Assembly (NCBI GenBank): GCA_902605135.1
Contig: CACLBK010000003.1
Span: 1-63,025, forward strand
DNA from: an uncultured Alphaproteobacteria bacterium
GTDB taxonomy: Bacteria > Pseudomonadota > Alphaproteobacteria > HIMB59 > GCA-002718135
Direction of reading: 5' to 3'
Length of the DNA: 63,025 nucleotides
Shown: positions 28,593-45,669 of the stretch, piece by piece
How positions within the stretch are numbered: the stretch's first letter is position 1
Layout of the letters: each line of letters opens with the position of its first letter
Program-made: the position numbers and the translations under genes
Notes under the pieces: generated by a model
What the model saw: only the letters and a program-made list of their open reading frames with translations
Told to the model about the DNA's origin: nothing
The model's database searches: none

Positions 28593-28657
28593 AAAACTCC
28601 TAAATTCTGAAAATTTTCATTAATATATGTATCCTAAAGATAAAGATATTAATCAAA

Positions 28658-28714: not shown

Positions 28715-29377
28715 ATGTTTGGACTAAAAAGTGCATCTTTATTTGGTGATACCAAAAAACTTGAGAGAGAAATTGATGAATTTGTCGATATTGTCTCTGA
28801 AGTAGGTTTAGTATTTAAATCTATTGTTCCAACTTATCTCAATCATTCCGCCAACGGTAAATTTGAGGAAATGGTTGAAAAAGTAAAAGAAATGGAAAGT
28901 AAGGCCGACAAAATTACGAAAGATGTTGAGCATACTCTTTATGAAGAAACACTAATCCCAGATGCAAGAAGTGATGTGTTACGACTTCTAGAACACATCG
29001 ACGAATTAATTGGAATGTACCAAGGGAATTGTTATCACTTCTCTATTCAAAAACCTAATTTTCCAAAAGAGTTTCACCAAGATTTAATTGAGTTAACAGA
29101 GACTGTTGTAAATTGTGTTGAATCATTATGTTTAACCGTAAGATCATTTTTTAGAGATATTAAATCTGTTAGAGATAATGCACATAAAGTTACATTTTAT
29201 GAAAAAGAATCTGATATAAAATTTAGTTCTCTTGCAAGAAGAATTTTTGATTCTGAATTACCCTTAGATCAAAAAATGCATCTTCGATACTTTGTAGAGA
29301 AAATTGATCGTATTTGTGATCAAGCAGAAGACATAGCTGACGAGGTTCAAATTTATGCTATTAAACGTTCCGTTTAA
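28715..29377 (+). CDS. DUF47/TIGR00153 PhoU-like phosphate transport regulator
   Basis: E..AD.I...V...LY...L.PD.R.D and D.AEDIAD motifs; immediately upstream of a pit gene. Confidence 0.88.
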   Translation: MFGLKSASLFGDTKKLEREIDEFVDIVSEVGLVFKSIVPTYLNHSANGKFEEMVEKVKEMESKADKITKDVEHTLYEETLIPDARSDVLRLLEHIDELIGMYQGNCYHFSIQKPNFPKEFHQDLIELTETVVNCVESLCLTVRSFFRDIKSVRDNAHKVTFYEKESDIKFSSLARRIFDSELPLDQKMHLRYFVEKIDRICDQAEDIADEVQIYAIKRSV

Positions 29378-29383
29378 TTTTCA

Positions 29384-30436
29384 ATGGAAATTACAATTCT
29401 AATTTTTTTATTTGGTGGTCTTTTTTTAGGTTGGTCACTTGGTGCTAATGATGCAGCAAATGTTTTTGGGACTGCTGTTGGAACGCGAATGGTTGGTTTC
29501 ACAACTGCAGCAATAATTTGTAGTGTCTTTGTTATTCTAGGTGCGATTATTAGCGGAGCAGGGACAACAGAAACTTTAGGTAAATTGGGTGCTATTAATG
29601 CATTGCCTGGTGCTTTTGCAGCATGTGTGGCTGCGGGAATATCTGTTTATTTAATGACCAAAGTTGGCTTGCCTGTTTCAACGACGCAAGCGATTGTTGG
29701 AGCAATTGTTGGTTGGAATTTATACACGGGATCTTCAACTAATCTTCAAGTCTTAATTACTATTTTAGGAACATGGATACTCTGCCCTATTATTGCAGGA
29801 GTTATTGCAATGGGTTTATTTACTTTTACAAAAAGAGTTATACTCAATAGAAAGCTACATATTCTCAGACTTGATGCGTATACAAGAACAGCTTTACTTT
29901 TAGCAGGTGCTTTTGGTGCTTATAGTTTAGGTGCAAACAATATTGCCAATGTAATGGGTGTCTTCGTACCTATATCGCCGTTTACTGATGTTACTATTGG
30001 AAATTTATTTGTCTTTTCTTCTAAAGAACAATTATTTCTTCTTGGTGGTTTAGCAATAGCCGTTGGTGTTTTTACTTACTCGAAAAGAGTTATGTTTACC
30101 GTGGGTAATGATCTTTTAAAAATGACACCTGTGGCAGCATTTATTGTTGTCATATCGCATTCTATTGTTTTATTTTTATTTGCATCCCAGGGTATAAGTG
30201 CTTTTTTACAATCTATAAATCTTCCCTCTATACCTTTGGTTCCAGTATCAAGTTCCCAAGCTGTTGTAGGCGGCGTAATTGGAATTGGTCTTTTAAAAGG
30301 AGGAAAAGAAGTTCAATGGTCAATTGCAGGAAGAATTTCTTTGGGTTGGATGACACTACCTATAATTGCAGCATTAATTTCTTTAATTGTTTTATTTATT
30401 CTAGAAAATATTTTTAATTTAACGGTCTCTTTTTAA
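29384..30436 (+). CDS. pit: Inorganic phosphate transporter, PiT family
   Basis: GANDAANVFGTAVG, GLPVSTTQA, GANNIANV, PVSSSQA. Confidence 0.95.
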   Translation: MEITILIFLFGGLFLGWSLGANDAANVFGTAVGTRMVGFTTAAIICSVFVILGAIISGAGTTETLGKLGAINALPGAFAACVAAGISVYLMTKVGLPVSTTQAIVGAIVGWNLYTGSSTNLQVLITILGTWILCPIIAGVIAMGLFTFTKRVILNRKLHILRLDAYTRTALLLAGAFGAYSLGANNIANVMGVFVPISPFTDVTIGNLFVFSSKEQLFLLGGLAIAVGVFTYSKRVMFTVGNDLLKMTPVAAFIVVISHSIVLFLFASQGISAFLQSINLPSIPLVPVSSSQAVVGGVIGIGLLKGGKEVQWSIAGRISLGWMTLPIIAALISLIVLFILENIFNLTVSF

Positions 30437-30957
30437 TTAACTGCTCGATAAGAAAAAATAAAATCTTCTTGGATTTTTGACTCAATAGCCCCTTTTCTTC
30501 TTGATCGCACTAGATCGATAGCTTCTTGTTTTTCATAATTAAATTCAACAAGTAAAATAGCAGCTATGGTGCCAGCCCTTCCTTTGCCTCCACGGCAATG
30601 CAAAACTATATTTTTTCCATCTATCAATTCATTCTTTAATAAAACTTTTGTTGTTTCCCATTTATATTTAAAATCTTTATCTGGTGCTCCCATGTCATAG
30701 ATGGGTAAATGGTACCAATGTAATTTATGTTCATAAATACTTTTGACAAAAAAAGTTTTATCACACAATTTTTCAAATTCGCTATCTTCAACAAAAGAAC
30801 TAATAGAACTACAATTATTATTTTTAAATATTTCTAATTCATTTGCTAAAATTTTTTCTTCAAACAAACCATAAGAATTAAGACCTGGAAAGGAAGTTAA
30901 TATAATTTTTCCTGCAAATGACTTAGAGTCAATAAAATCATAATTGCTAAATTGCAT
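30433..30957 (-). CDS. Cys-dependent (CX5R) dual-specificity/PTP-like phosphatase, CDKN3-like
   Basis: HCRGGKGRAG P-loop, HLPI.D..APD, R..R.GAIE...Q. Confidence 0.88.
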   Translation of the reverse strand: MQFSNYDFIDSKSFAGKIILTSFPGLNSYGLFEEKILANELEIFKNNNCSSISSFVEDSEFEKLCDKTFFVKSIYEHKLHWYHLPIYDMGAPDKDFKYKWETTKVLLKNELIDGKNIVLHCRGGKGRAGTIAAILLVEFNYEKQEAIDLVRSRRKGAIESKIQEDFIFSYRAVN

Positions 30958-31533
30958 TTACGCTTGTTTAGCTAAAAAAGACTGTCTTGCTTCTTCTAAA
31001 TAGGGACGGAAATGTTCAACATCGGGAGTTTTTTTATCTAGAATTTTTGCTAAATCATCAAATCTTCTAAGTTCTACTGCCTCATCCATAAAAGGTTTGC
31101 CGATAAACGCATCTGCTTCTTCTTTTGTGAAAGGACCACCTTGAACTTTTAACGAAAGTTTCGATGCTTCTGATAGGCTATCATAATAACCCTCTTCAAC
31201 ACTTGATAAATATCTTTTTGAATCAACATGTGCTCTAATTGGTAAAATAACATCTTCACCAAAATATTTTTTTAAAAAATCAGCACCTAAGTTTTCATGA
31301 TGACCATCTTTGCCTTCATGAATGGGATCGCCGTCCTCATAGATAAGGTGGCCAACATCATGCAGTAATGCTGCAGCAATTGTTGGTCCTGGTAATTTAT
31401 GTTTTTCAGCAAGTTCAGCGCATTGGAGTGCATGCTCAAGCTGGGTCACATCCTCATTACCATATTGAATATCAGCACCTTTTGTTTTCAAAAGATCTAA
31501 GAGATAATCTACGATATTTTCTTCCATTCTCAT
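30958..31533 (-). CDS. phnZ: HD-domain diiron phosphonate oxygenase, PhnZ/TmpB family
   Basis: VTQLEHALQCA, ALLHDVGH, HENLGA, HVDSKRYL, SL..QGG, RRFDD.AK; divergent from phnW. Confidence 0.85.
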   Translation of the reverse strand: MRMEENIVDYLLDLLKTKGADIQYGNEDVTQLEHALQCAELAEKHKLPGPTIAAALLHDVGHLIYEDGDPIHEGKDGHHENLGADFLKKYFGEDVILPIRAHVDSKRYLSSVEEGYYDSLSEASKLSLKVQGGPFTKEEADAFIGKPFMDEAVELRRFDDLAKILDKKTPDVEHFRPYLEEARQSFLAKQA

Positions 31534-31621
31534 TTATAATTAACTTATTAGAAAATAAATTCAATTCCAACTTTAATAAGATTGATCAAATTTATAATAA
31601 TATTTATTAAGTAAATATTTA

Positions 31622-32719
31622 ATGGATAAAAAATTATTAACCCCTGGTCCTCTCACGACATCGATGTCAACAAAAGAGGCTATGCTTCATGATTGGGGTT
31701 CAAGGGATACAAAATTTATTGATCTCAATGCATCAATTAGAGATTCCCTTGTTAAATTAATAGACGGTGAAGATAAATATCAATGTGTTCCAATGCAGGG
31801 AAGTGGAACTTTTGCTGTAGAGTCGATGGTGAGCTCTCTTACTCAAAAAGATTCTAAAATTCTGATTCTGATCAATGGTGCTTACGGACAAAGAATGAAA
31901 AAAATGTGCACTTATTTAGGGAGAGATTTTATTGAATATGAAGTTGCTGAACATGAAGTACATGACATCAATAAAATTGAAGAGTTAATTGATAGCAACA
32001 ACTTAACACACGTCTTTGCTGTATATTGTGAAACAACATCGGGTATTTTAAATCCTATTGAAGAGATTGCAAAATTAGTTGAAGGGAAAAACTTATCTTT
32101 ATTCATCGATGCAATGAGTGCCTTTGGTGCATTACCCTTAAGTTCTAAAACAATTACTTTTGATGCTGTAGCCGCTTCATCAAACAAATGCTTAGAAGGT
32201 GTGCCAGGTGTTGGTTTCATTCTTGTTAAAAATGATGTTATTCAAAATGCAAAAGGCAATAGTCACTCACTAAGTCTAGACCTGTATGATCAATGGCAAG
32301 CAATGGAAAAAAATAAACAATGGCGATTTACACCTCCTACACACGTATTGGCTGCATTCAACCAAGCTATTGAGGAACATAAAAAACAAGGCGGTGTAGA
32401 GGGAAGAGGTAAAAGATATAAAAAAAATTGTGAAATTATTTGTAATGGAATGAAAGAGTTGGGATTTGAGCAATTACTTCCTGATAATTTGCAAGCACCA
32501 ATTATTATTACTTTTAAACAACCTAATGATCCTAAATTTAATTTTGAGAAGTTTTATAATGCTCTTAGTGAAAAAGATTTTTTAATTTATCCTGGAAAAC
32601 TAACCGTGGCAGAAACTTTTAGAATTGGGTGTATTGGTAATTTAGATGAACAAGACATGATGGATACTATAAAGGCAGTAAAAGAAGTTGTTACTGAATT
32701 GGGACTAACATTAAACTAA
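31622..32719 (+). CDS. phnW: 2-aminoethylphosphonate--pyruvate transaminase
   Basis: LLTPGPLTTS, DWGSRD, CETTSG, DAMSAFG, SSNKCLEGVPG, QWRFTPPTH, IYPGKLT. Confidence 0.97.
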   Translation: MDKKLLTPGPLTTSMSTKEAMLHDWGSRDTKFIDLNASIRDSLVKLIDGEDKYQCVPMQGSGTFAVESMVSSLTQKDSKILILINGAYGQRMKKMCTYLGRDFIEYEVAEHEVHDINKIEELIDSNNLTHVFAVYCETTSGILNPIEEIAKLVEGKNLSLFIDAMSAFGALPLSSKTITFDAVAASSNKCLEGVPGVGFILVKNDVIQNAKGNSHSLSLDLYDQWQAMEKNKQWRFTPPTHVLAAFNQAIEEHKKQGGVEGRGKRYKKNCEIICNGMKELGFEQLLPDNLQAPIIITFKQPNDPKFNFEKFYNALSEKDFLIYPGKLTVAETFRIGCIGNLDEQDMMDTIKAVKEVVTELGLTLN

Positions 32720-32726
32720 CAAAACT

Positions 32727-33359
32727 ATGACAAAAGAAATTGAAATACCTTTAGTTAAAGCAACAAATGAAAATCTTAAAGGATATGGGTATTTAATCGA
32801 TAGTTTTGAAAATAGTGATATTGAAATTGTTACTTGGCCAAAACAAGGATGGCGCGACATAGAAGAGGGAACAGGAAATGAAGGTGGAACTACCGAAGGT
32901 TCTTTTGATACCTGGTGGCAAGGTGACGTGCTTTATGGACAAAATAATGCTGTCCAACATAAGAGCGATTATGAAGTAGATGGAAAATATATACTGGGTT
33001 ATGCCAATAACCCCGATCAAGAATTGCAAAAAGATAAATATTCAGATCCAACAAAAATATTTCTATGGCATGCAAATTATCATCCTGATGGAGGTCAGCT
33101 TTTTTTTCCTGCAGAAAATAAACCATTTATTTGTCCTTTAGCTTTACCAACAGACGACATCGAACCAGAACATTTCAAAGCATTTTATTGTGATGGATCA
33201 AAAGGTTTGTATATTCATCCAAACATTTGGCATGAAGGGGTGTTTCCAGTTTCAGAAAAACAATCATTTCAAGGAAAACAAGGTAAAGTACATGCAAGAG
33301 TTAGCATCGACTTAAAAGAGGAATTTAATAAGTATATTTATTTTAAAACTGCGGTCTAA
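32727..33359 (+). CDS. Ureidoglycolate-lyase-like cupin protein of unknown function
   Basis: AT.E....YG.L, HANYHPDGGQLFFP, F.AF..DG..GL.I.P..WH pattern as in AllA-like cupins. Confidence 0.65.
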   Translation: MTKEIEIPLVKATNENLKGYGYLIDSFENSDIEIVTWPKQGWRDIEEGTGNEGGTTEGSFDTWWQGDVLYGQNNAVQHKSDYEVDGKYILGYANNPDQELQKDKYSDPTKIFLWHANYHPDGGQLFFPAENKPFICPLALPTDDIEPEHFKAFYCDGSKGLYIHPNIWHEGVFPVSEKQSFQGKQGKVHARVSIDLKEEFNKYIYFKTAV

Positions 33360-33379
33360 TTATAAATTTATATAAAATA

Positions 33380-34168
33380 ATGAAAATTATTCATCTTTCA
33401 GACCCTCATATTTATATAGATAAGATTCATGGCATAGATCCTGTCAGTAAATTTAAAAAAGCATTAAGTCATATAAAAAATAATCATGGTGATGCAGATT
33501 TATTTGCCATCACTGGTGATATTACAGACTTAGGTGATAAAGATTCTTATCAGTTATTTATAAAAATCATTGATGAAGCAGGTCTGCCAAAGAATTTAAA
33601 TCCTCAATTAATTATAGGTAATCATGATAACAGAGATGAGTTTAAAATAAACTTTCCTAATATTGAAACCGATCCAAATGGATTTATTCAATACTTTAAG
33701 GATATAGATAATAAACGTTTAATTTTTATAGATACTAATCTAATTAATACTCACCAAGGACATTACTGTGAAGAGAGGCAAGAATGGTTAAATAATATTT
33801 TAAGTAAGACTAATACAGATACGTATATCTTTATGCATCATAATCCACTGGCATTAGTAAAAGAGGAAAGTGATGGAATAGGATTACAACAAAAAAAAGA
33901 GTTTCAAAAAATTTTAACGAAAAATAATAAGATAATAAAACATATTTTTTTTGGTCATCAACACATTACAAGTTCTGGCTCTTATTGTGGTATTACTTTT
34001 TCTTCACCAAGAAGTACTTGGTCTCCTCTAATACCTAACTTTTCAAATGAATATCGTTTAGGAACAGCTAATACAGATACAAATTATAATGTTGCAATAA
34101 TTCGATCTGACGCCTTAATTATTCATACAGAGGATTTTTTAAAAACAGAAGTTAATTGGTTTAAATAA
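33380..34168 (+). CDS. Metallophosphoesterase/phosphodiesterase, GpdQ/CpdA-like
   Basis: HLSDPH, TGDITD.G, GNHD.R, MHH.P, FGHQH. Confidence 0.9.
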   Translation: MKIIHLSDPHIYIDKIHGIDPVSKFKKALSHIKNNHGDADLFAITGDITDLGDKDSYQLFIKIIDEAGLPKNLNPQLIIGNHDNRDEFKINFPNIETDPNGFIQYFKDIDNKRLIFIDTNLINTHQGHYCEERQEWLNNILSKTNTDTYIFMHHNPLALVKEESDGIGLQQKKEFQKILTKNNKIIKHIFFGHQHITSSGSYCGITFSSPRSTWSPLIPNFSNEYRLGTANTDTNYNVAIIRSDALIIHTEDFLKTEVNWFK

Positions 34169-34172
34169 AAGA

Positions 34173-35279
34173 TTATTTTTTTTCGATTACAAATATTTCA
34201 TTGTTAAAATAAAGACCTTTATTTTTAGCAACAATGTTTTGGACTACTTTTTCGTAATTTTTTGTTTTTTCTACCTTCATTACTTTTTCGTCATCCATTT
34301 GGTTGACATATATGGAGGCATTCCAAGCAGAGAAAACTAATGATGTCGCTATACCTCCAGTGATTTCTGTTGGAAGAGCTCTCAGTTTACATTTAATAAT
34401 TCTTTTTTCTCCAAAAGATAAACTGCTTAATAACTCTTTATCTAAATTTTTCTTAAGATAAGAAACGATACTATTTCCAAGAGAAGGAAAAGGGTCCTCT
34501 TTTGGCCAAATTTTTCGAATTATTTCATTAGCAGGATCTTTTCCTGAAGCATGAATAGTTAATAATTTCCCTTTTGATTTTAAGGCTCTAATCATTGGTT
34601 CAATGACATATTTTGATTTCTTTTCTGCTGAAATTCTTGACCGATAAGGCTGTGAAGCAATAATAAGATCAAATTTATTATCTGATCTTTTTTTGGTAGG
34701 GATTAATTCATTAACATTAAATTCTTGATCTTCGCGGTAGATAACCATGACTGAAGGCTCTTTATAAGTATGGTTACCTGATTTTTTATTAATTTCTATA
34801 TTCCATTTTTTTTCTAAAAATTCATTTTGTTTTCTTAATTGTTGAGCAAATTCAAGAGAAGTGTCACCTTTTAATTTAATAATATTCCAATTAATTTTTT
34901 TCTGTTTAACTTCATTTTTTGATTTTAGGTTTGCGGCTTCCGCGTAGTGTAGATTTGAAATGACAAAAACAGTATTCTTATGCTCAACAAACCTATCGGG
35001 TAATTTTTCTAAACCTAATCTTACATCTTCTATGCTTATTTCTTTTGTGCAAACTAATAGAGGTACGTTAGGCCTAGCTTCGTGGCACTGACGCATTACA
35101 TTCATAAGTAAAGAACCATCCCCCATACCAGCATCAAATATTTTTAAACCAGGTTTTTGAGGTTTAATTTTATTTACGTGAGGACGTATCGCATCGGCAA
35201 TTTGATTTTTTTCATTTGTTGTTGTGACAAATAATAAATATTTTTGTCTGTTATCATAAAACCTGAAATTTTTTTTCAT
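34173..35279 (-). CDS. Conserved hypothetical protein with class I SAM-binding-like motif
   Basis: IFDAGMGDGS motif-I-like, KEIS.ED, FDLIIASQPY; 2 nt downstream of the Fe-ADH gene. Confidence 0.6.
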   Translation of the reverse strand: MKKNFRFYDNRQKYLLFVTTTNEKNQIADAIRPHVNKIKPQKPGLKIFDAGMGDGSLLMNVMRQCHEARPNVPLLVCTKEISIEDVRLGLEKLPDRFVEHKNTVFVISNLHYAEAANLKSKNEVKQKKINWNIIKLKGDTSLEFAQQLRKQNEFLEKKWNIEINKKSGNHTYKEPSVMVIYREDQEFNVNELIPTKKRSDNKFDLIIASQPYRSRISAEKKSKYVIEPMIRALKSKGKLLTIHASGKDPANEIIRKIWPKEDPFPSLGNSIVSYLKKNLDKELLSSLSFGEKRIIKCKLRALPTEITGGIATSLVFSAWNASIYVNQMDDEKVMKVEKTKNYEKVVQNIVAKNKGLYFNNEIFVIEKK

Positions 35280-35281
35280 TA

Positions 35282-36394
35282 CTAATAAAGTCCCATTGAT
35301 TTAGCAGAAGAGATGAAGGCTTCTTTATTGCCAATAAAGTTTTTACCTCGTTCCCCTAAAAACGCATCATCTACTATATTATTCCATTCTTGAACAGGAA
35401 CTTTTATTTCATTTAAGTTAAGAGGAACCTCTAAAGAACGCATAAATTCACTCAGATGATTTGCGGCATTCTCTAGGTTATCGTTAAAAATTAATTTTAG
35501 TCTTTCTTCAGCTACACTATCAATTCCAACCATACTTTTAGTAATCATCGGTAAAGTAAATGAACAAGCAATACCATGCTGAATACCGTAATTGAGTGTC
35601 ACAGGGTATGATAGATTGTGCGCAATAGCAGTTTTCGTATTGGAAAACGCTAAGCCAGCATGAACGCATGCCAATGCAATGTTTGAGCGTAATACAACAT
35701 TTCTTAAATCTTTAGTGAGAAGTGGTAAATTTTCTAATACTAATTTTGATGCTTGTATTGCATGAGAAGCAGAAATTGGGTTCGCATTAATATTCCAAAT
35801 ACTTTCCATTGAATGGGAGAGAGCATCTAAACCAGTTGAAATGGTCAAGCCTAAAGGCTTATCAACCATAATAGATGGATCAATAATTGCTTTTTCTGCA
35901 TAAAGAGATTTATGAGCCAAAGATAATTTATTGTTTTTTTCTTTATCCCAAATTGTGGCCCAACACGTAAGCTCACTTGATGTTCCTGAAGTTGTAGGTA
36001 TTGCAATAATCTTGATTGAATTTTCGACTCTTGGACTTTTCTTATTGCGAACGAAATCTGTTAGGTATTCTTGTTTATCTTTAAATGCAGCAATTGCTTT
36101 AGCTGTGTCTGTAACAGAGCCACCACCTATAGCTAAAATATAATCTACCGATTCATTGATTAAAGAAAATTTTTTTTGTAGCTCTAAAATATCCTTATAA
36201 TCTGGATTAGGTTGAACATCCGTCATAATGGATAAGGGTGGATTTGAAGAAGATTTTAATTCATCGCTATATTTTTTAAAAATTTCTTCTGGATGAGTGA
36301 TAATGATGTAGTTCTTATTTTTAAGAGCATCATGTACTTCTTTAAATCTATTTTCTCCAAAGATAATTTCAACAGGGTTAAAATAATTCCACAT
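35282..36394 (-). CDS. Iron-containing alcohol dehydrogenase, hydroxyethylphosphonate dehydrogenase/phosphonoacetaldehyde reductase-like
   Basis: GGGS..D.AK, PTTSGT.SE.T.WAT.WD, DALSH..ES.W, AFSNTKTAIAH.LSY..T...HG.AC; metal ligands intact. Confidence 0.85.
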   Translation of the reverse strand: MWNYFNPVEIIFGENRFKEVHDALKNKNYIIITHPEEIFKKYSDELKSSSNPPLSIMTDVQPNPDYKDILELQKKFSLINESVDYILAIGGGSVTDTAKAIAAFKDKQEYLTDFVRNKKSPRVENSIKIIAIPTTSGTSSELTCWATIWDKEKNNKLSLAHKSLYAEKAIIDPSIMVDKPLGLTISTGLDALSHSMESIWNINANPISASHAIQASKLVLENLPLLTKDLRNVVLRSNIALACVHAGLAFSNTKTAIAHNLSYPVTLNYGIQHGIACSFTLPMITKSMVGIDSVAEERLKLIFNDNLENAANHLSEFMRSLEVPLNLNEIKVPVQEWNNIVDDAFLGERGKNFIGNKEAFISSAKSMGLY

Positions 36395-36398
36395 TACA

Positions 36399-37478
36399 TT
36401 AAATTGATTTTGCCGCTTTAGTTAAAATTGTCATTTTCTCAATTGCTTGTTCTCTTGTAAAAAAACCTAATCCACAATCAGGAGCAGCAATTAAACGATT
36501 TTCATCAATATGCTCTAAAGAATCTTTCATACGAACTCTAACTTCTTCTACTGTCTCCATTCTGCTTTTAGCAATGTCAATAAATCCAAAAATAACTTTT
36601 GTTTTTGTAAATTTTTCTAAAAGATTTAAGTCATTATGTCTGTGGGAGTCTTCTAAGGATACTTCGTCAATTGTAGAGTCATCTACTAAAGTAGCAATTC
36701 TATCATAAGCATCTAATTCTGCTTTCTTGTATCCATGAGAATCTAAGGAATTTGGATAACCACAACAGATATGACAAACTCGTTGAACTTCTTTTGGAAT
36801 ACCATGCATCATTCTTTCCAAGTTTTCCATGCCATAAGCATTGGCCTCATCGGGTTTTCTTGCAAAAACTGGTTCATCAATTTGGATATATTGACAACCA
36901 GCATCTGCTAGAGCTTTTACCTCTTTGTTTAGAGCCAAAGCTAAATCAAAACCAAGTTTTTTCATGTCATCATAATAATTATTAGCAATAGAATCTGTTA
37001 TTGTCATCGGTCCGGGGAGAGTTATTTTAACTGGATTTTTTGTAAATTGCTGAGCACTTTTCCAATCTATATGCATTCGAATTTCTTTACTTGAAATTGG
37101 AGCTACTATCGTTGGAAGATCAGCTTCAAAGGCTCCTTGTCGTACAGATTTATGAGTTACCTCTTTAAAACTTACACCATTTAAAAAACGACATTGGTAT
37201 AAAACATAACTTTCACGTCTTACTTCTCCATCAGTTGGAACATCAATTCCCGCATTTACCTGATCAATAATAACTTCTTTAATTGCTTCTAAAAATAATT
37301 TTTCTGCTTCTTCACCTGCTGACTCTAATGCCTTTTCATAAGCGCCTGGAGACCAATTAGATAAAAGTCCTTTTGAAGCTTTTCTCTCTTCTTCTGATTT
37401 GGTACCTAAAAACCAATCTTGAATTGGTGTCTGTTTTGGTTTTGGATATGCACCTATGGTAGTAGTTGTAAGAGGCAT
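36399..37478 (-). CDS. Stand-alone MetE C-terminal (cobalamin-independent methionine synthase II / core) family Zn enzyme
   Basis: TTIGAYPKP, TDGE.RR, K.TLPGP.T, IQIDEP, HICCG, APDCG; 359 aa with no N-terminal MetE barrel. Confidence 0.88.
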   Translation of the reverse strand: MPLTTTTIGAYPKPKQTPIQDWFLGTKSEEERKASKGLLSNWSPGAYEKALESAGEEAEKLFLEAIKEVIIDQVNAGIDVPTDGEVRRESYVLYQCRFLNGVSFKEVTHKSVRQGAFEADLPTIVAPISSKEIRMHIDWKSAQQFTKNPVKITLPGPMTITDSIANNYYDDMKKLGFDLALALNKEVKALADAGCQYIQIDEPVFARKPDEANAYGMENLERMMHGIPKEVQRVCHICCGYPNSLDSHGYKKAELDAYDRIATLVDDSTIDEVSLEDSHRHNDLNLLEKFTKTKVIFGFIDIAKSRMETVEEVRVRMKDSLEHIDENRLIAAPDCGLGFFTREQAIEKMTILTKAAKSI

Positions 37479-37508
37479 GACTTATTCTCCCAAATATCTT
37501 AAAATAAA

Positions 37509-37533
37509 ACAGCGGCTTTTATAAAGCCGCTGT
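37509..37533 (-). terminator. Stem-loop after the SBP gene (terminator or mRNA-stabilising hairpin)
   Basis: ACAGCGGCTTT-TAT-AAAGCCGCTGT perfect 11-bp stem, followed by TTTATTTT on the minus strand. Confidence 0.75.
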
Positions 37534-37560
37534 AATAAAAAGTTAACAATAAAGTAATCT

Positions 37561-38814
37561 TTATAGAAGATCGTTTATTTCTTCCATCATCTCTTCTTGA
37601 AGATCACCCATGTCGTCAGCATCACCTGTAGCAATTTCTTCAGTATAATCATAGATTACCTGAGTTACTGCTAATCCGTTTTCACCAGGATATGCAAACC
37701 AATCGGCTAATAATGGAAGTTGTTCAACAGCAGTAAGTTTATTAGGGTTTTCACTATAGAAATCACCTAATAATTCATTCGCTGCTTTATTTGGTGGAAC
37801 GTATCCAGTAGTTTCAGCAACAAGTGCTGCACCTATACCAGAAGTAATGAACTTTAAGAAAGTCCAAGCCGCATCCACTCTTGCTGGGTCATCAGAAGTA
37901 GAAACCAACATCGCAGCATTACCACCTGCTGGTAGTCTTGCTGGTGTTCCATTATTCACACCTGCCATTCCAGGAAATGGTGCTGTTTTAAGAACAAAAT
38001 CTGCTTTTGCAGCATTAACTGAACCTAAGCTAGAAGTTGACCAGAACATCATACCGATAGTACCTGCATTAAAAGCAGCTTGACCATCAGCAATTGAATA
38101 GTTTGGCATATTACAACCACTCATGATTTCTTTCATTTGTTCTAAAGTAGCCAGACCTGCATCTCCACCCATGTTGACAGTTCCATCTTTTACCATTGGT
38201 ACATTTTGAGTATGCATTAAAGCTTGGTGGAACCAGTTACCTGTAATGTTCCAACCAAAATATAAAGTTCCTTTTCCAGCTGCCTCTAATTTATTACAAG
38301 CTGCAATAACTTCATCCCAGTTGGTTGGGATGCTATCTATACCTGCTTCAGCTAATAAATCCATGTTGTAGTATCCAACTGGAGTTGATACAGAAAATGG
38401 TAAACCATAAACTTCACCACCAAAGGTAGATAGGCTTAACATTGCAGAGTGATAACCATCTTTTTCAAAATCAGCTTCTCCTGCAATAAAAGGTTCAAGT
38501 GATTTTGCAATTTCTTTATCAACCAATGGCGCTTGTCTATTAAGACCTTGCATTGTTACATCTGGTAAATTACCTGAAGTTGATTCTCTGAAAATTGTTG
38601 CAGTAGCATCCTCATAGTTTTCATAAGTTGCTCTGAACTTTACTTGAATATCTGGATGTGCTTTTTCAAACTCTGGCATAATAGCTTGAAACGTTACATC
38701 GAATAATCCTGAATAAGGATAAGCTACTTCTATCTCAATAGATTTAGCTGAATTAACTGAACCATAAAAACCAAAAGCTAATACAGCAGCTAATCCTGTA
38801 ATTAATTTTTTCAT
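37561..38814 (-). CDS. ABC transporter substrate-binding protein, CUT1/UgpB-like
   Basis: Signal peptide, YGLPFSVSTPV.YYN.D, P..WDE, GGNAAM, AAW.FLKF, TGY.P; RBS GGAGG. Confidence 0.88.
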   Translation of the reverse strand: MKKLITGLAAVLAFGFYGSVNSAKSIEIEVAYPYSGLFDVTFQAIMPEFEKAHPDIQVKFRATYENYEDATATIFRESTSGNLPDVTMQGLNRQAPLVDKEIAKSLEPFIAGEADFEKDGYHSAMLSLSTFGGEVYGLPFSVSTPVGYYNMDLLAEAGIDSIPTNWDEVIAACNKLEAAGKGTLYFGWNITGNWFHQALMHTQNVPMVKDGTVNMGGDAGLATLEQMKEIMSGCNMPNYSIADGQAAFNAGTIGMMFWSTSSLGSVNAAKADFVLKTAPFPGMAGVNNGTPARLPAGGNAAMLVSTSDDPARVDAAWTFLKFITSGIGAALVAETTGYVPPNKAANELLGDFYSENPNKLTAVEQLPLLADWFAYPGENGLAVTQVIYDYTEEIATGDADDMGDLQEEMMEEINDLL

Positions 38815-38868
38815 TTAATCCTCCGATTTTAATAAAATATAAATTAACCTACCATGTAGAATAATGAG

Positions 38869-38886
38869 GTTACAATTTTATTACGT
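38869..38886 (-). promoter_or_regulatory. Putative Pho box upstream of the SBP-MetE-like-FeADH operon
   Basis: Minus strand ACGTAAT-AAAA-TTGTAAC, with a weaker third half-site TCGGAAT 11 nt further upstream. Confidence 0.5.
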
Positions 38887-38954
38887 AATTATTCCGAAAA
38901 AATAATAGTATTTTTCCACAGCTCTTAAGATATTGTTGAAAATCTAGGTTTTTT

Positions 38955-40397
38955 TTACCAAGGTAAAGAAAATGTTTTAACGTTGGTAAAGCTTTTCATC
39001 GCTTCAATTACACCCTCTTTATAACCAAGACCTGAGTCTTTAATTCCTCCAAAAGGAGACATTTCAATTCTGTAGCCTGGCACCTCCCAAATATTTACAG
39101 TGCCAACATTTAAACCTTGAATATATTTTTTTGCTCGCATGAAGTTGTTTGTACATACACCTGATGATAATCCAAATGCTGTAGAATTAGAAATATTCAT
39201 CACGGCATCATCATCATTTGGTACACGGATGATTGGAATAACTGGACCAAATGTTTCTTCTAAAACTAATTCACTTTTAGGATCAACATTGTCTACTACT
39301 ATTGGAGGCAACAACGCACCGTTTCTTCCAGGGTGATATAAAATTTTAGCACCGTCTTCTTCCGCCATTGAAACTCTTTTATCAAATAGTTCTGCAGCTT
39401 GAACATTAACAACTGTTCCTAAATCTGTTTCCATATTCATTGGGTCACCAAATTTAATTTTTTTTGCTCTTTCAAGAGTCATTTCAACAAATTGATCAGC
39501 AATTGATTCTTGAACTAAAATTCTTTTAACTGCAGTACAGCGCTGTCCTGAATTTTTTGTTGCGCCAGTAACAGCTAGCTCAACAGCTTTTTTAAGGTCA
39601 TCGACGTCTAAATCATTTAATACAATTAATGGATCGTTTCCACCAAGTTCTAGAACAGTTCTTTTATATCCAGCTTGTTCGGCAATTAATTTTCCTACAC
39701 CTACACTTCCTGTAAAAGTAATAAGATCGATATTTGGGTTCTTAATCATTTCAGAGCCAATATCTTGCGGCCACCCGGTAACAACTGAAAACATTTCTGG
39801 TGGTAAACCAGCTTCGTATAAAACATCAGCGAGTACCATTGCTGTTAAAGGTGTTAATTCTGTCTGCTTACAAACAGTACAATTGTTTGTTGCAATTGAT
39901 GGAGCAATTTTATGTGCTACCATATTCAAAGGATGATTAAATGGAGTGATTGCTGAAATAGCTGTTAATGGTTCTCTTATAGTAAATATTTTTCTTGCTT
40001 TTCCATGTGGAGTTAAATCACAAGAAAATATTTCTCCATCATCTAGAATACAAAGTTGAGCCGTTAATGAAAATACATCGAAAGCTCTTCCTACTTCGTA
40101 TAAAGAATCTTGTTTTGAGATACCAAGTTCTAAAGTAATAATATCAGAAATTTCTTCTTTTCTTTTAACAAGTACTTCTGCAGCAGTTTGAAGAATTTTT
40201 TGTCTCTCATATCTTGTAAGTTTAGGTTGGTAATTTGCAGCAATATCTAGAGCCTTTCTTGCATGCTCAGCAGTACCGGCAGGGACCGTGCCGATTACTT
40301 CACCTGTAAAAGGGTACTCAACATTTATTGTTTTATCTGAAGTAACTTTTTCTCCAGCTATACGCATTGCTTCATTAATCATTTTTTTGTGCATCAT
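38955..40397 (-). CDS. phnY: Phosphonoacetaldehyde dehydrogenase (NAD+ ALDH)
   Basis: [57 protein letters not shown]; coupled to phnA. Confidence 0.95.
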
Positions 40398-41635
40398 AGG
40401 GCTCCGTTAATTGCATAGTAAAATGCATCATAGTTATATAATTGTTTGCTAGTATCTATGTTTTGTAATTTTAAATTTGATATGAATGGCACTTCTCTTT
40501 CATGAAGTCCACCATGAGAACGTAAAGGTTCATTTAATCCAGAAAGATTGTGTTTATCTTCCGATGAACCAATGGTCATAAATTCTGAAGACATACATAT
40601 TATGTCTCCCATTCTATCAGGGGGTAAGTTATAAGTAGAGCATCCTTCGTCTTTTGTTAAAACAACTTCTATATCTTTTATTTCTTTGATAGCATTTACA
40701 ACTGAATCTACCTTACTTTTGTCTTCTAAATAAATTGTTGCAAAAGAACCAAGTGAACCATGATGCACGACATATGGATCTGTAATTGGTAGAATAACTT
40801 TAGCCATGTTTGGTTCAAATTTATTATCTAAATAATCTTGTAAAAATATTGCATTAGGTGAACCGTCTTCTTTTGATTTTGGTTTCATACCGTGATCTGC
40901 TGTAATGATTATAGAAACATTCTCCTTATTTAAAAGACCAATATATTTATCAAACATTGCATAAAATTTATTTGCTGTTTCATTTCCTGGTGCATATTTG
41001 TGCTGAATATAATCTGTTGTCGATAAATACATGATATTTGGTTTGAACTCTTCAAGAAGCTTTACACCTGCGGCCATTACAAATTCAGAAAGTCCTTCAG
41101 AGTATACTTCTGGCACTGGCATTCCCAACCAATCGTTTACATTATCTATACCATTGAGATCTTTTGTTGCTTGATCAGATTTTTCAGCAGAAAAACAAAT
41201 AGCTCTCTCATCATCAAAACTTAATCCGTTTCCTAAAAGTGTTCTCAGCTTATCTTTTGCAGTAACAAGAGCAATTTTAGAACCAGAATTGTAAAATTTT
41301 TCAAAAATAGTTGGTGCTCGCATATATTTTGGGTCATTCATCATTACTTCTTCACCAGTCTCGGGTGTATAAAAAAAGTTTCCGCATATACCGTGAACAG
41401 AACTTGGCTGCCCAGTTACAATGGAAATATTATTAGGATTTGTAAAACTTGGAATAGCGCTGTGAACAAGTAGGTTTTCACCACTTGCAATTAGTTTGTC
41501 AAGATTTGGCGTAAGATTTGATTTTGATGCTTCGTCGAGATACTCTTTTTGACTACCATCAAGACATATAACAATAGCAGTTTTTGAGAAAGAGCTTGGA
41601 TATTCTCTTTTATTAATTTCTAAATTATCAGACAC
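40394..41635 (-). CDS. phnA: Phosphonoacetate hydrolase (GTG start)
   Basis: [51 protein letters not shown]. Confidence 0.96.
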
Positions 41636-41711
41636 GAATTCAACTAATATATCATTAAAAATAAGAATTTATAGTTATCTGCTAGTTAAACTCAATCATA
41701 ATTTGAATATT

Positions 41712-41755
41712 TGTTAATAAAATTGAAATAAAACTGAAATAATTAGATTTATAAT
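41712..41755 (+). promoter_or_regulatory. Putative Pho-box-like 11-nt repeats and -10 element upstream of the ABC ATPase
   Basis: TGTTAAT-AAAA-TTGAAAT-AAAA-CTGAAAT (41712-41740), then TATAAT at 41750-41755. Confidence 0.45.
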
Positions 41756-41812
41756 ATTCTCAAATTTAATAAAATTTTGTAGATTAAATATAATTATAAG
41801 GGGGGAGATTAA

Positions 41813-42952
41813 GTGGGCACAATATCACTTAAAAATATTTCAAAGTCATTTGGATCTACGCAAGTATTAAACAATTTAAATGTTGATATACAAGATGGCG
41901 AATTTTTAACATTAGTTGGTCCATCTGGTTGTGGTAAATCTACGTTACTTCGAATCATTGCAGGATTAGAACAACAAACTTCAGGCGATGTATTAATTGA
42001 TAATAAGAATGTAAATAAAATTAGAGCCAGCGAGCGAGATCTTGCAATGGTATTTCAATCATACGCTTTATATCCACATTTAACGGTACGAAGAAATTTA
42101 GAAACACCTCTAAGACTGAGAGATTATAATGCTTTTGAACGCCTTCCTTTAATAGGGAATTTTTCTCCAAACAAAAAAAATAAAACTGAGTCTATCAATC
42201 AATTAGTTAATAAAACATCTGAAACACTTCAGATTTCTGAACTACTGGATAGAAAACCAGGACAATTATCAGGAGGCCAAAGACAAAGAGTAGCTCTTGG
42301 TCGCGCAATGGTAAGAGAACCTGTTGCATTCTTAATGGATGAACCGCTATCAAATTTAGATGCCGCTCTAAGAGTGCATATGCGATCTGAATTATCAGAA
42401 CTTCACAATTCACTTAAAACAACATTTGTTTATGTAACGCATGATCAAGCAGAAGCATTGACAATGTCTTCTCGTATGGCGGTAATGATTGATGGAAATT
42501 TATTACAACTAGATACACCTCAAGAAGTTTATGATAATCCTTCATCATTAAGTGTTGCGCAATTTGTTGGTAGTCCTAAAATAAATATTTTTAATGGATC
42601 TTCAGATTCTAGTGGAACTGTTAATTTTTTAAATGTTAACCTGAAAAGAAAAAGTTCTGAAAGTAATTCAGATTTACACATAGGAATTCGACCAGAACAT
42701 TTAGAAATTACTAATGATAAAGATGAAAACACATTTAGTGGCACTGTTGCTTACAGAGAAAATTTAGGATCAGATATATACTTCCATGTTAATATAGAAG
42801 ACAACTCAAAAAAAATAATTGTAAGAGGCTTACCTCAATTTACACATCAAATTACAAATGGTTCAAGTGTAAATATCAAGAGAGATTCAAATAAAGCATT
42901 GTTATTTAATCAAACAGGGATGAGGATTCATTTTAATAATGCAATGGGATAA
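41813..42952 (+). CDS. ABC transporter ATPase, CUT1 (UgpC/MalK-like), GTG start
   Basis: GPSGCGKST, VFQSYALYPH, LSGGQRQRVA, MDEPLSNLD, YVTHDQ. Confidence 0.93.
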   Translation: MGTISLKNISKSFGSTQVLNNLNVDIQDGEFLTLVGPSGCGKSTLLRIIAGLEQQTSGDVLIDNKNVNKIRASERDLAMVFQSYALYPHLTVRRNLETPLRLRDYNAFERLPLIGNFSPNKKNKTESINQLVNKTSETLQISELLDRKPGQLSGGQRQRVALGRAMVREPVAFLMDEPLSNLDAALRVHMRSELSELHNSLKTTFVYVTHDQAEALTMSSRMAVMIDGNLLQLDTPQEVYDNPSSLSVAQFVGSPKINIFNGSSDSSGTVNFLNVNLKRKSSESNSDLHIGIRPEHLEITNDKDENTFSGTVAYRENLGSDIYFHVNIEDNSKKIIVRGLPQFTHQITNGSSVNIKRDSNKALLFNQTGMRIHFNNAMG

Positions 42953-42967
42953 GGATAACATTTACTA

Positions 42968-43924
42968 ATGCATAATTCAAAAGCGCATCTATGGTTTATT
43001 GCCCCTGCAATAATACTCATGATAATTATTTTAATCTTTCCTCTTTTTCTTGCAGGTGGAATTTCCTTTACTGATTATAATCTAGGTAACAAAACATTCG
43101 AATGGATTGGGTTAGAGAACTATGACAAAATGTTTAACCGAAAAACTTATGTGAAAATGATTTGGGCGACAGCCACGTATGTAATTGTTGTGGTGCCTAT
43201 TTCAGTTATACTTGGTTTATGTGCAGCGATGCTCTTGAATTCTCTTCGATTTGGTGCTGACATATATAAAACTATTTTCTTTCTTCCTGTTATGGCGACA
43301 CTTCTGGCAATGGCTATTGCTTGGGAATTCACTCTTCACCCAACTCTTGGAATAGTAAATAGTTTTTTAGCTAATGGTTGTGGTGGTGCAAGAGAATTTA
43401 TTTTTGGTTTTCATTGGTTGCCGTGGGTAGATTCAGAACAAAGTTGGTATGCAGTGGCGTGTGCAAATAACATGGACTTTCCTTATTGGTTAAAACAAAA
43501 AAATACTGCCATTTGGACTGTGTGTTTTATTGGAATATGGCAAGCCTTTGGTTTCAATATGGTTTTATATTTAGCTGGATTAACAGGTATACCAAGAGAG
43601 TTATACCAAGCTGCAGAAATGGATGGGGCTAAATCAACATGGGAACAATTTAAACTTGTAACATGGCCAATGCTTGGTCCAACAACTTTATTTGTTGTAA
43701 CCATAACTACTATTAGAACCTTTCAAGTTTTTGATACAATTGAAATACTCACAAAAGGTGGTCCATCTAAAACAACCTACGTTATGATGTATGCAATTTT
43801 TGAAAAAGCTATTCAACAAAATTTAACAAGTATTGGTGCGGCTATCACAGTTGTATTCATTGGCTTTATATTGATATTAACTTTCTTCCAAAGATATATC
43901 ATTGAGAAAAGGGTTCATTATTAA
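42968..43924 (+). CDS. Carbohydrate-type ABC permease 1 (UgpA-like)
   Basis: ELYQAAEMDGA EAA loop, F.VFD.I..LT.GGP. Confidence 0.92.
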   Translation: MHNSKAHLWFIAPAIILMIIILIFPLFLAGGISFTDYNLGNKTFEWIGLENYDKMFNRKTYVKMIWATATYVIVVVPISVILGLCAAMLLNSLRFGADIYKTIFFLPVMATLLAMAIAWEFTLHPTLGIVNSFLANGCGGAREFIFGFHWLPWVDSEQSWYAVACANNMDFPYWLKQKNTAIWTVCFIGIWQAFGFNMVLYLAGLTGIPRELYQAAEMDGAKSTWEQFKLVTWPMLGPTTLFVVTITTIRTFQVFDTIEILTKGGPSKTTYVMMYAIFEKAIQQNLTSIGAAITVVFIGFILILTFFQRYIIEKRVHY

Positions 43925-44817
43925 TGGAAGCTAAACAGTATATTGGAGAAGGTTGGAAACATGCAATATTAATTGTTGGTGCAATTGTTGTGTTGTTGCC
44001 TTTTTATATGATGGTTTCAATGTCATTAAAATCTCAACAAGAAATTCAATCTATTTCTGGAGGTTTAATTGGTGCACAAGAAACTCAAACATTTCCCGTA
44101 TGTGTAAAAACTGGATACTCAGAAGAAGAATGCACAATGAAACCATATAAATACAACTATTGGTTTGCTTTCGAAAAGGCTCCTATTCCAAGATACTTGA
44201 TGAATGGTGTTATCGTTACTTTATCAATTTTTATTATTCAGGTTCTTGTCGCCTTACCGTGTGCTTACGCACTGGCCAAACTTAGATTTTATGGACGAGA
44301 ATTTGTTTTCTCGATGGTTCTATTTTGTTTACTCATTCCAGTGCATGGTATTGCACTTCCGCTTTATGTCATGCTTGCTCAGGCAGGTTTGGTCGATACC
44401 TATTCTGCCTTAATACTCCCCTGGACAATATCGGTATTTGGAATCTTTTTAATGCGGCAATTTTTTATGACAGTCCCAGATGAATTAATTGATGCCGCCA
44501 GAATGGATGGAATGGGAGAGTATGCTATCGTCTGGAAAGTAATGCTTCCAACTGCGATACCAGCGTTGCTTGCCTTTGCAATATTCTCCGTAGTTGCACA
44601 CTGGAATGATTATTTCTGGCCTCGTATGGTAATAACAGGAAATAGAGATCTCTTTACACCACCTCTTGGTATCAGAGAATTTAGAGGAGGAATTGATAGT
44701 GATGAATTTGGTCCAATGATGGCTTCAATTGTTACAGTTACAGTGCCTCTCATTGTTGCTTTTATAATTGCGCAAAAAAGATTTATTGAAGGAATTACTT
44801 TAACAGGAATGAAGTAA
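43924..44817 (+). CDS. Carbohydrate-type ABC permease 2 (UgpE-like)
   Basis: ELIDAARMDG, WNDYFWP, Q.RFIEGI. Confidence 0.92.
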   Translation: MEAKQYIGEGWKHAILIVGAIVVLLPFYMMVSMSLKSQQEIQSISGGLIGAQETQTFPVCVKTGYSEEECTMKPYKYNYWFAFEKAPIPRYLMNGVIVTLSIFIIQVLVALPCAYALAKLRFYGREFVFSMVLFCLLIPVHGIALPLYVMLAQAGLVDTYSALILPWTISVFGIFLMRQFFMTVPDELIDAARMDGMGEYAIVWKVMLPTAIPALLAFAIFSVVAHWNDYFWPRMVITGNRDLFTPPLGIREFRGGIDSDEFGPMMASIVTVTVPLIVAFIIAQKRFIEGITLTGMK

Positions 44818-44826
44818 GATAGTCTT

Positions 44827-45669
44827 TTGTCTATCAATTTTATTTTTCTTTTAATTATTTTATCTGCACTGTGTCACGCTATTTGGAGTGCCATAATTAA
44901 ATCAAGTAAAAACCCCTTATCACTAATGGGAATTACTTCTATCTTAGAAGTAGTTATTTTTTTACCATTAACATTTACCGTTCCTTTTCCTAAAATAGAA
45001 GTCTGGTACTTTTTAATTGCAACTGTAATTATTCATGTCTTTTACAGACTAAATGTTATCTACTCTTACAGATATGGGGATCTATCCTACATCTATCCAA
45101 TCTCTAGAGGAAGTTCATGTTTATTTGTTGCTATCATTAGTATTTTGTTTTTAAGTTCTAATATTAGTGTTGCTGGCTTTGTTGGAATATTGATTGTTTG
45201 TATTGGTTTATTTTTAATATCGTATTCGAAAAATTTATCTTTTAACTTTAGAGGTTTTTCACTTGCGATTTCAACTGCTATTTTAATTACTGCATATACT
45301 TTAGTTGACGGAGTTGGGGTTAGGCTTTCGGAAAACGGTTTTTCATATATTTATTGGCTCTTCACTCTAAATGGTATTCCTTTATTAGTTATAGGTTTAA
45401 TTTCTAAGAATGGATTGCGAAAAACAGAAACGTATAGTTATAGCTCTGGTATAACAGCAGGTATATTTGCAACAAGCAGTTATGCGATTGTTGTTTGGAG
45501 TATGCAGTTTATAGAAATAGCATATGTCTCAAGTATCAGAGAAATCAGTATTGTTTTTGCTGCAATAATTGGAATGGTTTTCTTGTTTGAGAAGAATGCG
45601 AAATCTCGAATAATACCTTCTATTTTAATAGTGAGTGGTATTTCAGTGGTTTATTTTCAAATTCTTTAG
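44827..45669 (+). CDS. DMT/EamA family transporter
   Basis: HA.W, GDLS..YPI.RG, YTLVDG.G, RE.S.VF; about 10 TM segments. Confidence 0.85.
   Translation: MSINFIFLLIILSALCHAIWSAIIKSSKNPLSLMGITSILEVVIFLPLTFTVPFPKIEVWYFLIATVIIHVFYRLNVIYSYRYGDLSYIYPISRGSSCLFVAIISILFLSSNISVAGFVGILIVCIGLFLISYSKNLSFNFRGFSLAISTAILITAYTLVDGVGVRLSENGFSYIYWLFTLNGIPLLVIGLISKNGLRKTETYSYSSGITAGIFATSSYAIVVWSMQFIEIAYVSSIREISIVFAAIIGMVFLFEKNAKSRIIPSILIVSGISVVYFQIL

Follow-up and report, generated by a model that had tools for sequence, protein, structure and literature searches.

A co-inherited importer and MetE-core protein in the phosphonate island of a streamlined marine alphaproteobacterium, a candidate route for methyl-bearing phosphonates

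The contig CACLBK010000003.1 (GenBank assembly GCA_902605135.1; 63,025 nucleotides, the whole of which is called the window here) comes from an uncultured bacterium of the HIMB59 lineage, a streamlined marine alphaproteobacterium, and carries an island of phosphonate catabolism genes. In this island, the genes for the degradation of 2-aminoethylphosphonate (AEP) are interleaved with those of an ATP-binding cassette (ABC) importer of the CUT1 type, a zinc protein with a MetE core, a predicted 2-hydroxyethylphosphonate (HEP) dehydrogenase, and several accessory genes. The cluster is a mosaic and not one pathway; the importer and MetE-core genes are inherited together, and the PTP, HD, AllA-like, phosphodiesterase, SAM-fold, and DMT genes look like add-ons with an inheritance of their own. 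We propose, with a probability of about 0.42, that the co-inherited importer and MetE-core protein import a methyl-bearing two-carbon phosphonate, pass its methyl group to homocysteine, and leave a substrate for PhpC, PhnY, and PhnA. The importer would deliver the esterified or N-methylated phosphonate, and a homocysteine thiolate activated by zinc would take the methyl group from it, yielding methionine and the phosphonate. HEP would then be oxidized to phosphonoacetaldehyde by the PhpC-type alcohol dehydrogenase (ADH), AEP would be converted to the same aldehyde by PhnW, and PhnY and PhnA would carry it through phosphonoacetate to acetate and phosphate. Zinc-thiolate SN2 methyl transfer to homocysteine is the likely reaction of the MetE-core protein, judging from its residues and fold, and if it occurs, we place the chance that the methyl group comes from the imported compound or from the first product made of it slightly above even. 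We favor a donor that leaves HEP on demethylation, for example a P-O-methyl ester, since the minimal cassette encodes PhpC and no enzyme that would remove an amine; a quaternary-ammonium donor comes close behind.

The joint inheritance of the importer and MetE-core genes was seen in related genomes of one order, which belong to two families, that of the window (f1) and a second one (f2). The window genes were mapped onto 100 loci, 33 of which span the f1 island (31 distinct islands after the removal of two duplicates); phnA was present in 30 of 41 genomes. Of the 33 spanning loci, 21 have the MetE-core, binding-protein, ATPase, and both permease genes and 12 have none of them, with 0 discordant loci; for the 31 distinct islands, the numbers are 20 and 11, even though these genes sit on both sides of phnY-phnA. 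PhpC was retained in three spanning loci without the importer and MetE-core genes. Among nine fetched f2 phnA regions, seven comprised the importer and the run phnA-phnY-binding protein-MetE-PhpC and nothing else of the island but a 33% identical SAM-fold relative two genes off, and the other two had an AepX-type importer and a TIGR03364 oxidase. The f2 cassette is without phnW and the HD, AllA-like, phosphodiesterase, and DMT genes. phnW was not found in any of five cassette-bearing f2 genomes, which are 92 to 94% complete (best match, 20 to 21%). A protein query for a PbfD-type oxidase found none in four of four cassette-bearing f2 genomes, and a profile search with a positive control likewise found none in one cassette genome; the TIGR03329-type relatives are only 27 to 37% identical. 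The island-type MetE-core gene occurs in 26 of 71 f2 and 46 of 79 f1 genomes. At one f2 locus (L044:14087-16478), the cassette adjoins a gene for a DddP-like dimethylsulfoniopropionate lyase (below the cut-off) and a 33% SAM-fold relative.

In the window, 15 open reading frames (ORFs) occupy positions 30433-45669, and the GC content of the window is 23 to 35%. An earlier note, made from the letters of the window alone, had described these genes as tightly coupled, which holds for the intergenic gaps (-4 to 177 bp), and all of the genes lie at the coordinates given there. The island consists of four transcription blocks on alternating strands and is not a single operon. The accessory labels of that note were the best available matches, with scores below the curated cut-offs, and its span left out the PhoU-like/PiT pair at the left end. 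Membership in a curated family was judged by the NCBIfam/TIGRFAM score against the cut-off of the model, and scores are given in that order. The features are as follows.

28715..30436, plus strand: PhoU-like (DUF47) protein and PiT phosphate transporter, paired at the left end of the island (PF01865, PF01384)
Block 1, minus strand: PTP-HD
30433..30957, minus strand: CX5R (DSP/PTP-fold) phosphatase (PF22784/PF00782)
30958..31533, minus strand: PhnZ/TmpB-family HD diiron oxygenase, putative (TIGR03276, 199.9 versus 214.6)
Block 2, plus strand: phnW-AllA-like-phosphodiesterase
31622..32719, plus strand: PhnW, 2-aminoethylphosphonate:pyruvate transaminase (NF010006 and TIGR02326 above cut-off)
32727..33359, plus strand: ureidoglycolate-lyase-like (AllA-like) cupin (PF04115 partial, ESM Atlas)
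33380..34168, plus strand: GpdQ/SpdA-like metallophosphodiesterase (SpdA, 174 versus 400; 2dxl)
Block 3, minus strand: phnA-phnY-binding protein-MetE-core-FeADH-SAM-fold
34173..35279, minus strand: methyltransferase-like (SAM-fold) protein of 368 amino acids, no curated family (DxGxGxG motif, ESM Atlas neighbors)
35282..36394, minus strand: predicted PhpC-type HEP dehydrogenase of the Fe-ADH family (TIGR03405 best match; residue positions)
36399..37478, minus strand: MetE-core zinc enzyme, HxCCGYP subfamily (PF01717, MesD comparison, model)
37509..37533, minus strand: terminator-like hairpin and T-run between the binding-protein and MetE-core genes (consensus match)
37561..38814, minus strand: CUT1 solute-binding protein of a phosphodiesterase-linked importer family (profile matches, orthologue survey)
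38955..40397, minus strand: PhnY, phosphonoacetaldehyde dehydrogenase (TIGR03250 above cut-off)
40394..41635, minus strand: PhnA, phosphonoacetate hydrolase (TIGR02335 above cut-off)
Block 4, plus strand: ATPase-permeases-DMT
41813..44817, plus strand: CUT1 importer ATPase and two permeases, divergent from phnA (profile matches)
44827..45669, plus strand: EamA/DMT membrane protein, TIGR03340-related (145 versus 288)

The importer is a CUT1 ABC set with Ugp as its best named match, and all of its components score below the cut-offs (UgpB, 67 versus 411; UgpA, 101 versus 335; UgpE, 129 versus 297; UgpC, 391 versus 432). It also falls outside the AepXVW/PhnS2-T2 group, with no TIGR03261 match and an ATPase score of 308 versus 458 (TIGR03265), and true AepX-type members are present in the related loci L041 and L042. 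Of 400 other genomes of the class, 12 had importer orthologues (35 to 66% identity), and in 9 of these 12, as well as in all four plasmid records opened (of 31), a GpdQ-like phosphodiesterase gene follows the binding-protein gene, a pairing that fits ester uptake. In this order, the MetE-core gene occupies that position. On this genomic context, the family looks like a phosphodiester importer that may here have been recruited to the phosphonate pathway. The import and cleavage of phosphonate esters, as suggested in the earlier note, thus finds backing in the orthologous cassettes, but the window phosphodiesterase is only 27 to 36% identical to the usual partner enzymes of the importer and is missing from the f2 cassette. 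In comparison with the UgpBAEC/UgpQ and GpdQ-type uptake cassettes, the CUT1 architecture is the same and the orthologous cassettes end in a metallophosphodiesterase, whereas here the binding protein scores far below UgpB, the MetE-core gene comes after it, and the cassette wraps phnY-phnA. The slot around phnW and the phosphodiesterase gene holds varying importers among the related islands (L034:3401-7348, L066, L036:636-5524, and L041:1379-6633), namely, UgpB-like, GDPD-linked, OpuAC betaine-type, and AepX-type with a TIGR03329-like oxidase, with the OpuAC type in two f1 islands.

The MetE-core protein (359 amino acids) contains only the PF01717 catalytic barrel and no N-terminal folate-binding barrel, and it scores 91 versus 930 with the full-length MetE model TIGR01371. 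Its closest structure is MesD (3rpd; E value of 2e-45), with which the predicted model (pLDDT of 92) aligns with a Z score of 42.2 and a root mean square deviation of 2.0 Å over 329 residues, at 33% identity. The zinc ligands H236, C238, E276, and C335 are conserved in 120 to 121 of 121 sequences. The homocysteine ligands of MesD are Ser22, Glu73, Asp188, and Tyr226 (Price et al. 2021, PMC7857596), and the last three are kept as E85, D201, and Y241; the zinc ligands and these three homocysteine ligands are found in 119 to 121 of 121 sequences. An extra cysteine, Cys239, in the motif HxCCGYP is invariant (121 of 121). The idea that this cysteine replaces Tyr226 of MesD proved wrong, as Tyr226 corresponds to the retained Y241. 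These features suggest that the protein is a predicted folate-independent homocysteine methyltransferase, which shares with MesD (PMC7857596; 3rpd) the stand-alone barrel, the zinc ligands, and the Glu/Asp/Tyr homocysteine ligands. By sequence, it is nevertheless not MesD; its 33% identity lies below the level of about 55% or more that marks MesD, the PRK09121 score is 199 versus 392, the Ser22 position is mostly Ala, the extra cysteine is present, and the genomic links are to importers and ester hydrolases and not to an adjacent MesX. No MesX (DUF1852, PF08908) match was found among the neighbors, and a genome-wide search found none in five of five genomes, its positive control being silent too. 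The only plasmid relatives found are methionine synthases with 32 to 34% identity.

A quick tree with 86 rows placed the island copies in their own clade (SH-aLRT support of 100), nested among proteins of marine metagenome-assembled genomes (MAGs) and apart from the f1 paralogue, and the closest outside members were MAG proteins of Magnetovibrio, Arenicellales, and Chromatiales. This clade, and the fact that the island copy is kept intact at 70 to 96% identity across two families of streamlined genomes and never occurs without the importer in the spanning loci, argue against a different explanation, in which the importer takes plain HEP or nonmethylated HEP esters and the MetE-core protein is a hitchhiking folate-independent methionine synthase with a generic donor. 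A PF02574-type homocysteine methyltransferase is already encoded in four of the five genomes tested, and the pairing of phnA with an ester hydrolase recurs beside a MetE-core gene in a gammaproteobacterial locus (L276), which also speaks against a mere passenger. However, most of the subfamily members outside the order stand alone or lie in nonphosphonate settings, f1 has a near-universal MetE-core paralogue elsewhere in the genome, and PhpC, PhnY, and PhnA are enough for HEP (PMC13576164). We regard a passenger synthase as unlikely, though it is the strongest competitor of the proposed methyl transfer from an imported phosphonate.

The surroundings of other HxCCGYP proteins bear on both explanations. 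All 15 loci of the paralogue found elsewhere in most f1 genomes have genes for an omega-aminotransferase and alanine dehydrogenase beside it. Six of them also have an Opp importer with a gene for a PehA-like phosphonate-monoester hydrolase, five an Opp importer with one for a PHP metallohydrolase, and four a polyamine-type importer. In the source genome, G000, the paralogue and a PehA-like hydrolase gene form an operon that is divergent from an Opp-type importer and lies beside aptA-ald (G000:C17:6994-18463, L157); in relatives, either a PehA-like or a PHP enzyme fills the hydrolase slot, and L100 and L106 have a PHP protein from that model family close to PhpC-phnA-phnY. MetE-core relatives were found in 16 of 36 genomes, at 17 places, in the order of G732, which is also that of a Granulosicoccaceae locus. 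One of these places (L276:2-17229) has a co-oriented phnA-PehA-like-MetE-core run with phnY, a phosphonate-type LysR gene, and an Opp importer alongside, and it is an independent recurrence of the MetE-core gene with phnA and an ester hydrolase. A PehA-like gene also lies beside the MetE-core gene at three further places in that order, so that such hydrolases flank it in 4 of 16 loci. Esters of HEP and methylphosphonate occur in marine polysaccharides, for which a role of phosphonate monoester hydrolase has been proposed (PMC5649143, PMC9381506). The broader claim, that HxCCGYP proteins are further folate-independent methionine synthases taking methyl groups from imported solutes, with the island clade using a methylated organophosphonate, may be made only tentatively and is rather doubtful. 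In L243, L244, L249 to L251, L254, and L259, the neighbor of the HxCCGYP gene encodes an AptA omega-aminotransferase (two of these loci also have alanine dehydrogenase), which hints at a link to beta-alanine-type solutes.

Several observations weigh against the proposed role in phosphonate demethylation. The related genomes are kin, so their counts are not independent and the co-inheritance may reflect few events, and four of the five f2 cassette genomes hold a 36% identical phosphodiesterase homologue elsewhere. The position of MesD Ser22 is Ala10 in the window protein (Ala in 90 and Ser in 26 of 121 sequences). Outside the order, phnA, phnY, or phnW was found near none of the importer orthologues (0 of 12). 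Of the 17 places in the order of G732, only one has phnA/phnY with the MetE-core gene. No phn gene was found at the 24 places in family f9 (21 of 301 genomes matching) or at the 20 that were fetched, of 32, in the order of G731; the subfamily members there stand alone or have an omega-aminotransferase (7 of 20) or betaine-type genes for neighbors. The zero counts in f9 and the order of G731 rule out a phosphonate link of the whole subfamily. The idea that the MetE-core protein replaces an esterase is weakened, as the two genes occur together in L276, L266, L271, L274, and the f1 paralogue locus; a protein that accompanies the ester hydrolase, and does not stand in its place, need not be the de-esterifying step. 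In addition, seawater is not known to contain a natural methyl ester of HEP. Beyond these groups, matches to the MetE-core protein were found in 1 of 400 other genomes in a phylum-wide draw, the family of G1060 gave 0 of 4, and no relative was found among viral contigs. Contigs of equal length among the MetE-core and binding-protein matches, taken as a sign that the two genes lie together, numbered 4 of 120 against 1.6 by chance (P of about 0.08), with only the one of 267,308 bases persuasive, and they carry no weight here.

The nature of the donor leads to a second alternative, which overlaps the proposed mechanism and differs from it in the donor. Here, the donor would be a quaternary amine (N,N,N-trimethyl-AEP, or choline or betaine from an imported ester), and the MetE-core protein would be a MetE-fold analogue of betaine:homocysteine methyltransferase (BHMT). 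Onium donors suit zinc-thiolate chemistry, which is established for BHMT and MmuM, and the combination of an importer with a direct methyl-donor:homocysteine methyltransferase, as in MmuP/MmuM and BHMT, has the same logic as that proposed here, in which an imported small methyl donor gives methionine directly. Those enzymes have the PF02574 fold versus PF01717 here, and the donor here is possibly a phosphonate. A quaternary amine would agree with the OpuAC-type importer of the two f1 islands, the TmpB relationship of the HD protein, and the settings of some MetE-core relatives, one beside an OpuAC importer (L160) and others near dimethylglycine-dehydrogenase-like and GbcA-like genes (L260 and L261); in L260:3007-11093, the MetE-core gene comes right after the dimethylglycine-dehydrogenase-like gene, with a GbcA-like Rieske oxygenase gene and a sarcosine-oxidase-like gene near. 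However, the dimethyl-AEP product would require a PbfD-type oxidase (PMC10590968), and the searches of the cassette genomes turned up none. There is also no PhnY*/TmpA hydroxylase gene in the cluster beside the HD gene, G000 having only two TmpA relatives of 29 to 31% identity elsewhere. As a reading of its own, a quaternary-amine donor is improbable. No enzyme taking N-methyl-AEPs to phosphonoacetaldehyde was found, and the routing of methylated AEP derivatives that the earlier note had suggested is unsupported.

The entry of AEP and HEP into the PhnY-PhnA route, also suggested there, is supported. PhnW (NF010006, 512 versus 296), PhnY (TIGR03250, 797 versus 636), and PhnA (TIGR02335, 467 versus 408) all pass their curated cut-offs, which places the complete PhnW-PhnY-PhnA pathway in one cluster, as had been claimed. 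This pathway differs here from the known one in its CUT1-type importer instead of AepXVW/PhnS2, the lack of a LysR regulator, and the location of phnW in a separate block from phnY-phnA. The Fe-ADH scores 362.2 with TIGR03405, below the cut-off of 423.7, yet this is its top model by >200 bits; the f2 orthologue scores 385 and a rhizobial neighbor 426. Its metal residues D190, H194, H259, and H273 equal D191, H195, H260, and H274 of PhpC by position, with no direct alignment to the reference, and its phosphonate residues K156, T255, Y263, and R349 equal K157, T256, Y264, and R349 by numbering, not alignment. It is thus a predicted PhpC-type dehydrogenase that would convert HEP to phosphonoacetaldehyde. 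PhpC was characterized in 2026 as the enzyme that oxidizes HEP to phosphonoacetaldehyde, and its genes cluster with phnY-phnA, often without phnW (Piazza et al., PMC13576164), an arrangement shared by the Fe-ADH gene with matching residues here. Both entries are therefore already published, and the HEP branch is no longer without a description. This marine order is absent from Tables S1 and S2 of PMC13576164, which cover only phnW, pbfD, phnX, phnY, and phnA, and the word "methionine" was not found in its supplement. The PhnW-PhnY-PhnA pathway, with transcripts, has been reported in >85% of "Ca. Indicimonas" (AEGEAN-169) genomes and a "partial 2-AEP pathway" (phnY and phnA only) in 30% of "Ca. 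Nemonibacter" genomes (PMC11366302). This split is mirrored by that between f1 and f2, in line with a placement of the two families in the HIMB59/AEGEAN-169 order, and the f2 cassette allows the partial pathway to be read as one that is likely of the HEP type. For the order, the excerpts of PMC10734472 describe only C-P lyase islands and leave phnW, phnA, and phnZ unmentioned.

What appears to be new is the importer-MetE-core cassette and the HxCCGYP subfamily, and what is known is the AEP core and the HEP branch. No description of the subfamily or the cassette was found in the open-access literature (subscription journals were outside the scope), no open-access paper with both methionine-synthase and phosphonate-cluster terms was found among the matches listed, and neither is mentioned in the excerpts of PMC10308909. 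HEP esters make up a large share of marine dissolved phosphonate. The ligand of the importer binding protein would show the form of phosphonate that these cells take up, and the MetE-core protein provides a handle on the donors used by core methionine synthases. If the proposal is true, abundant oligotrophic bacteria obtain phosphate, acetate, and methionine from one molecule, which would point to an unrecognized pool of methylated phosphonates in seawater.

The earlier note had treated the accessory genes as a single coordinated set, and a third explanation keeps to this view, with all 15 genes forming one integrated funnel, in which esters are imported and split by the local phosphodiesterase and AEP, HEP, and methylated derivatives are routed onward, or part of them running biosynthetically (AEP to HEP, S-adenosylmethionine-dependent methylation, DMT export, and recycling of homocysteine by the MetE-core protein). 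Among the f1 islands, the full arrangement is indeed the most frequent (20 of 33 spanning loci), the 33% SAM-fold relative lies near the f2 cassette too, PhpC is faster in the reductase direction (PMC13576164), and AEP-to-HEP repurposing has been proposed (PMC9381506). However, genes are gained and lost by block, the f2 cassette lacks many of them, and PhnY and PhnA are degradative. The SAM-fold gene, present in 32 of 33 spanning f1 loci, is kept even in islands without PhpC, the MetE-core gene, and the importer. Its relatives occur in 25 of 249 genomes outside the genus, with phn neighbors at 0 of 11 fetched regions. The AllA-like gene has seven outside matches, with phosphonate neighbors (a tmpA-tmpB operon) at one of six fetched. 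An integrated or biosynthetic island is thus very improbable, and the single coordinated set is not borne out.

Among the accessory proteins, the SAM-fold protein has no Pfam, NCBIfam, or PDB match and has ESM Atlas neighbors labeled "methyltransferase family" at 0.99; the label of this 368-amino-acid protein is a lead. The outside relatives in L226:6130-7509 and L225:6026-7477 are longer, with a common N-terminal extension that is absent from the window copy. In L217:6649-9053, a tmpA-tmpB operon is followed directly by an AllA-like cupin gene 56% identical to that of the window, and a plasmid copy of the AllA-like gene lacks the tmpA-tmpB context. The HD protein (TIGR03276, for which bona fide TmpB scores 203.5; TmpB model, 155 versus 300) has full-length matches to 6npa and 4mlm. 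The phosphodiesterase (GpdQ 2dxl, E value of 6e-13) keeps seven GpdQ-type metal ligands in the alignment to 2dxl and 2zo9, in motifs that we take to be DxH, GD, GNH, H, and GHxH; its gene is absent from 4 of 33 spanning f1 loci, and others carry a 56 to 70% variant, sometimes with its own ABC importer. The CX5R protein falls in the DSP/PTP family, and its gene was met only in f1 islands. The best model of the DMT protein is a phosphonate-associated membrane protein (TIGR03340), and relatives also lie beside phnY in rhizobial and other loci.

Among the 17 ORFs at 28715-45669, Pfam and curated-model scans recognized no pepM/ppd, C-P lyase, PbfA/C/D, TmpA, or regulator gene, in agreement with the earlier note, and PhnJ was not found in the source genome (68% complete). 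The PhoU-like/PiT pair adjoins the cluster in most f1 loci and neighbors phnA in two f2 loci. Terminator-like sites by consensus match numbered 4 versus 7.4 in shuffles, and the genes beyond the hairpin at 37509-37533 would be transcribed by read-through. A promoter scan was no better than chance (72 sites versus 72.3 in shuffles). Contigs from metatranscriptome libraries of four studies span all 30 bins of the region, including the MetE-core gene, and this denotes library presence and not levels, cotranscription, or proof of transcription. Upstream of the PhoU-like/PiT pair, TGTAAC-like repeats with an 11-bp phasing at 28647-28675 are possibly a Pho box; a loose Pho-box pattern gave 12 matches, a number without a chance control. 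A bacterial SET-domain protein (PF00856) is encoded close to the island at 25963-26460, and a probable short ORF at 45714-45875, between the DMT gene and a FYDLN gene, shows by eye a zinc-finger-like pattern, CxxG...H...CxxC.

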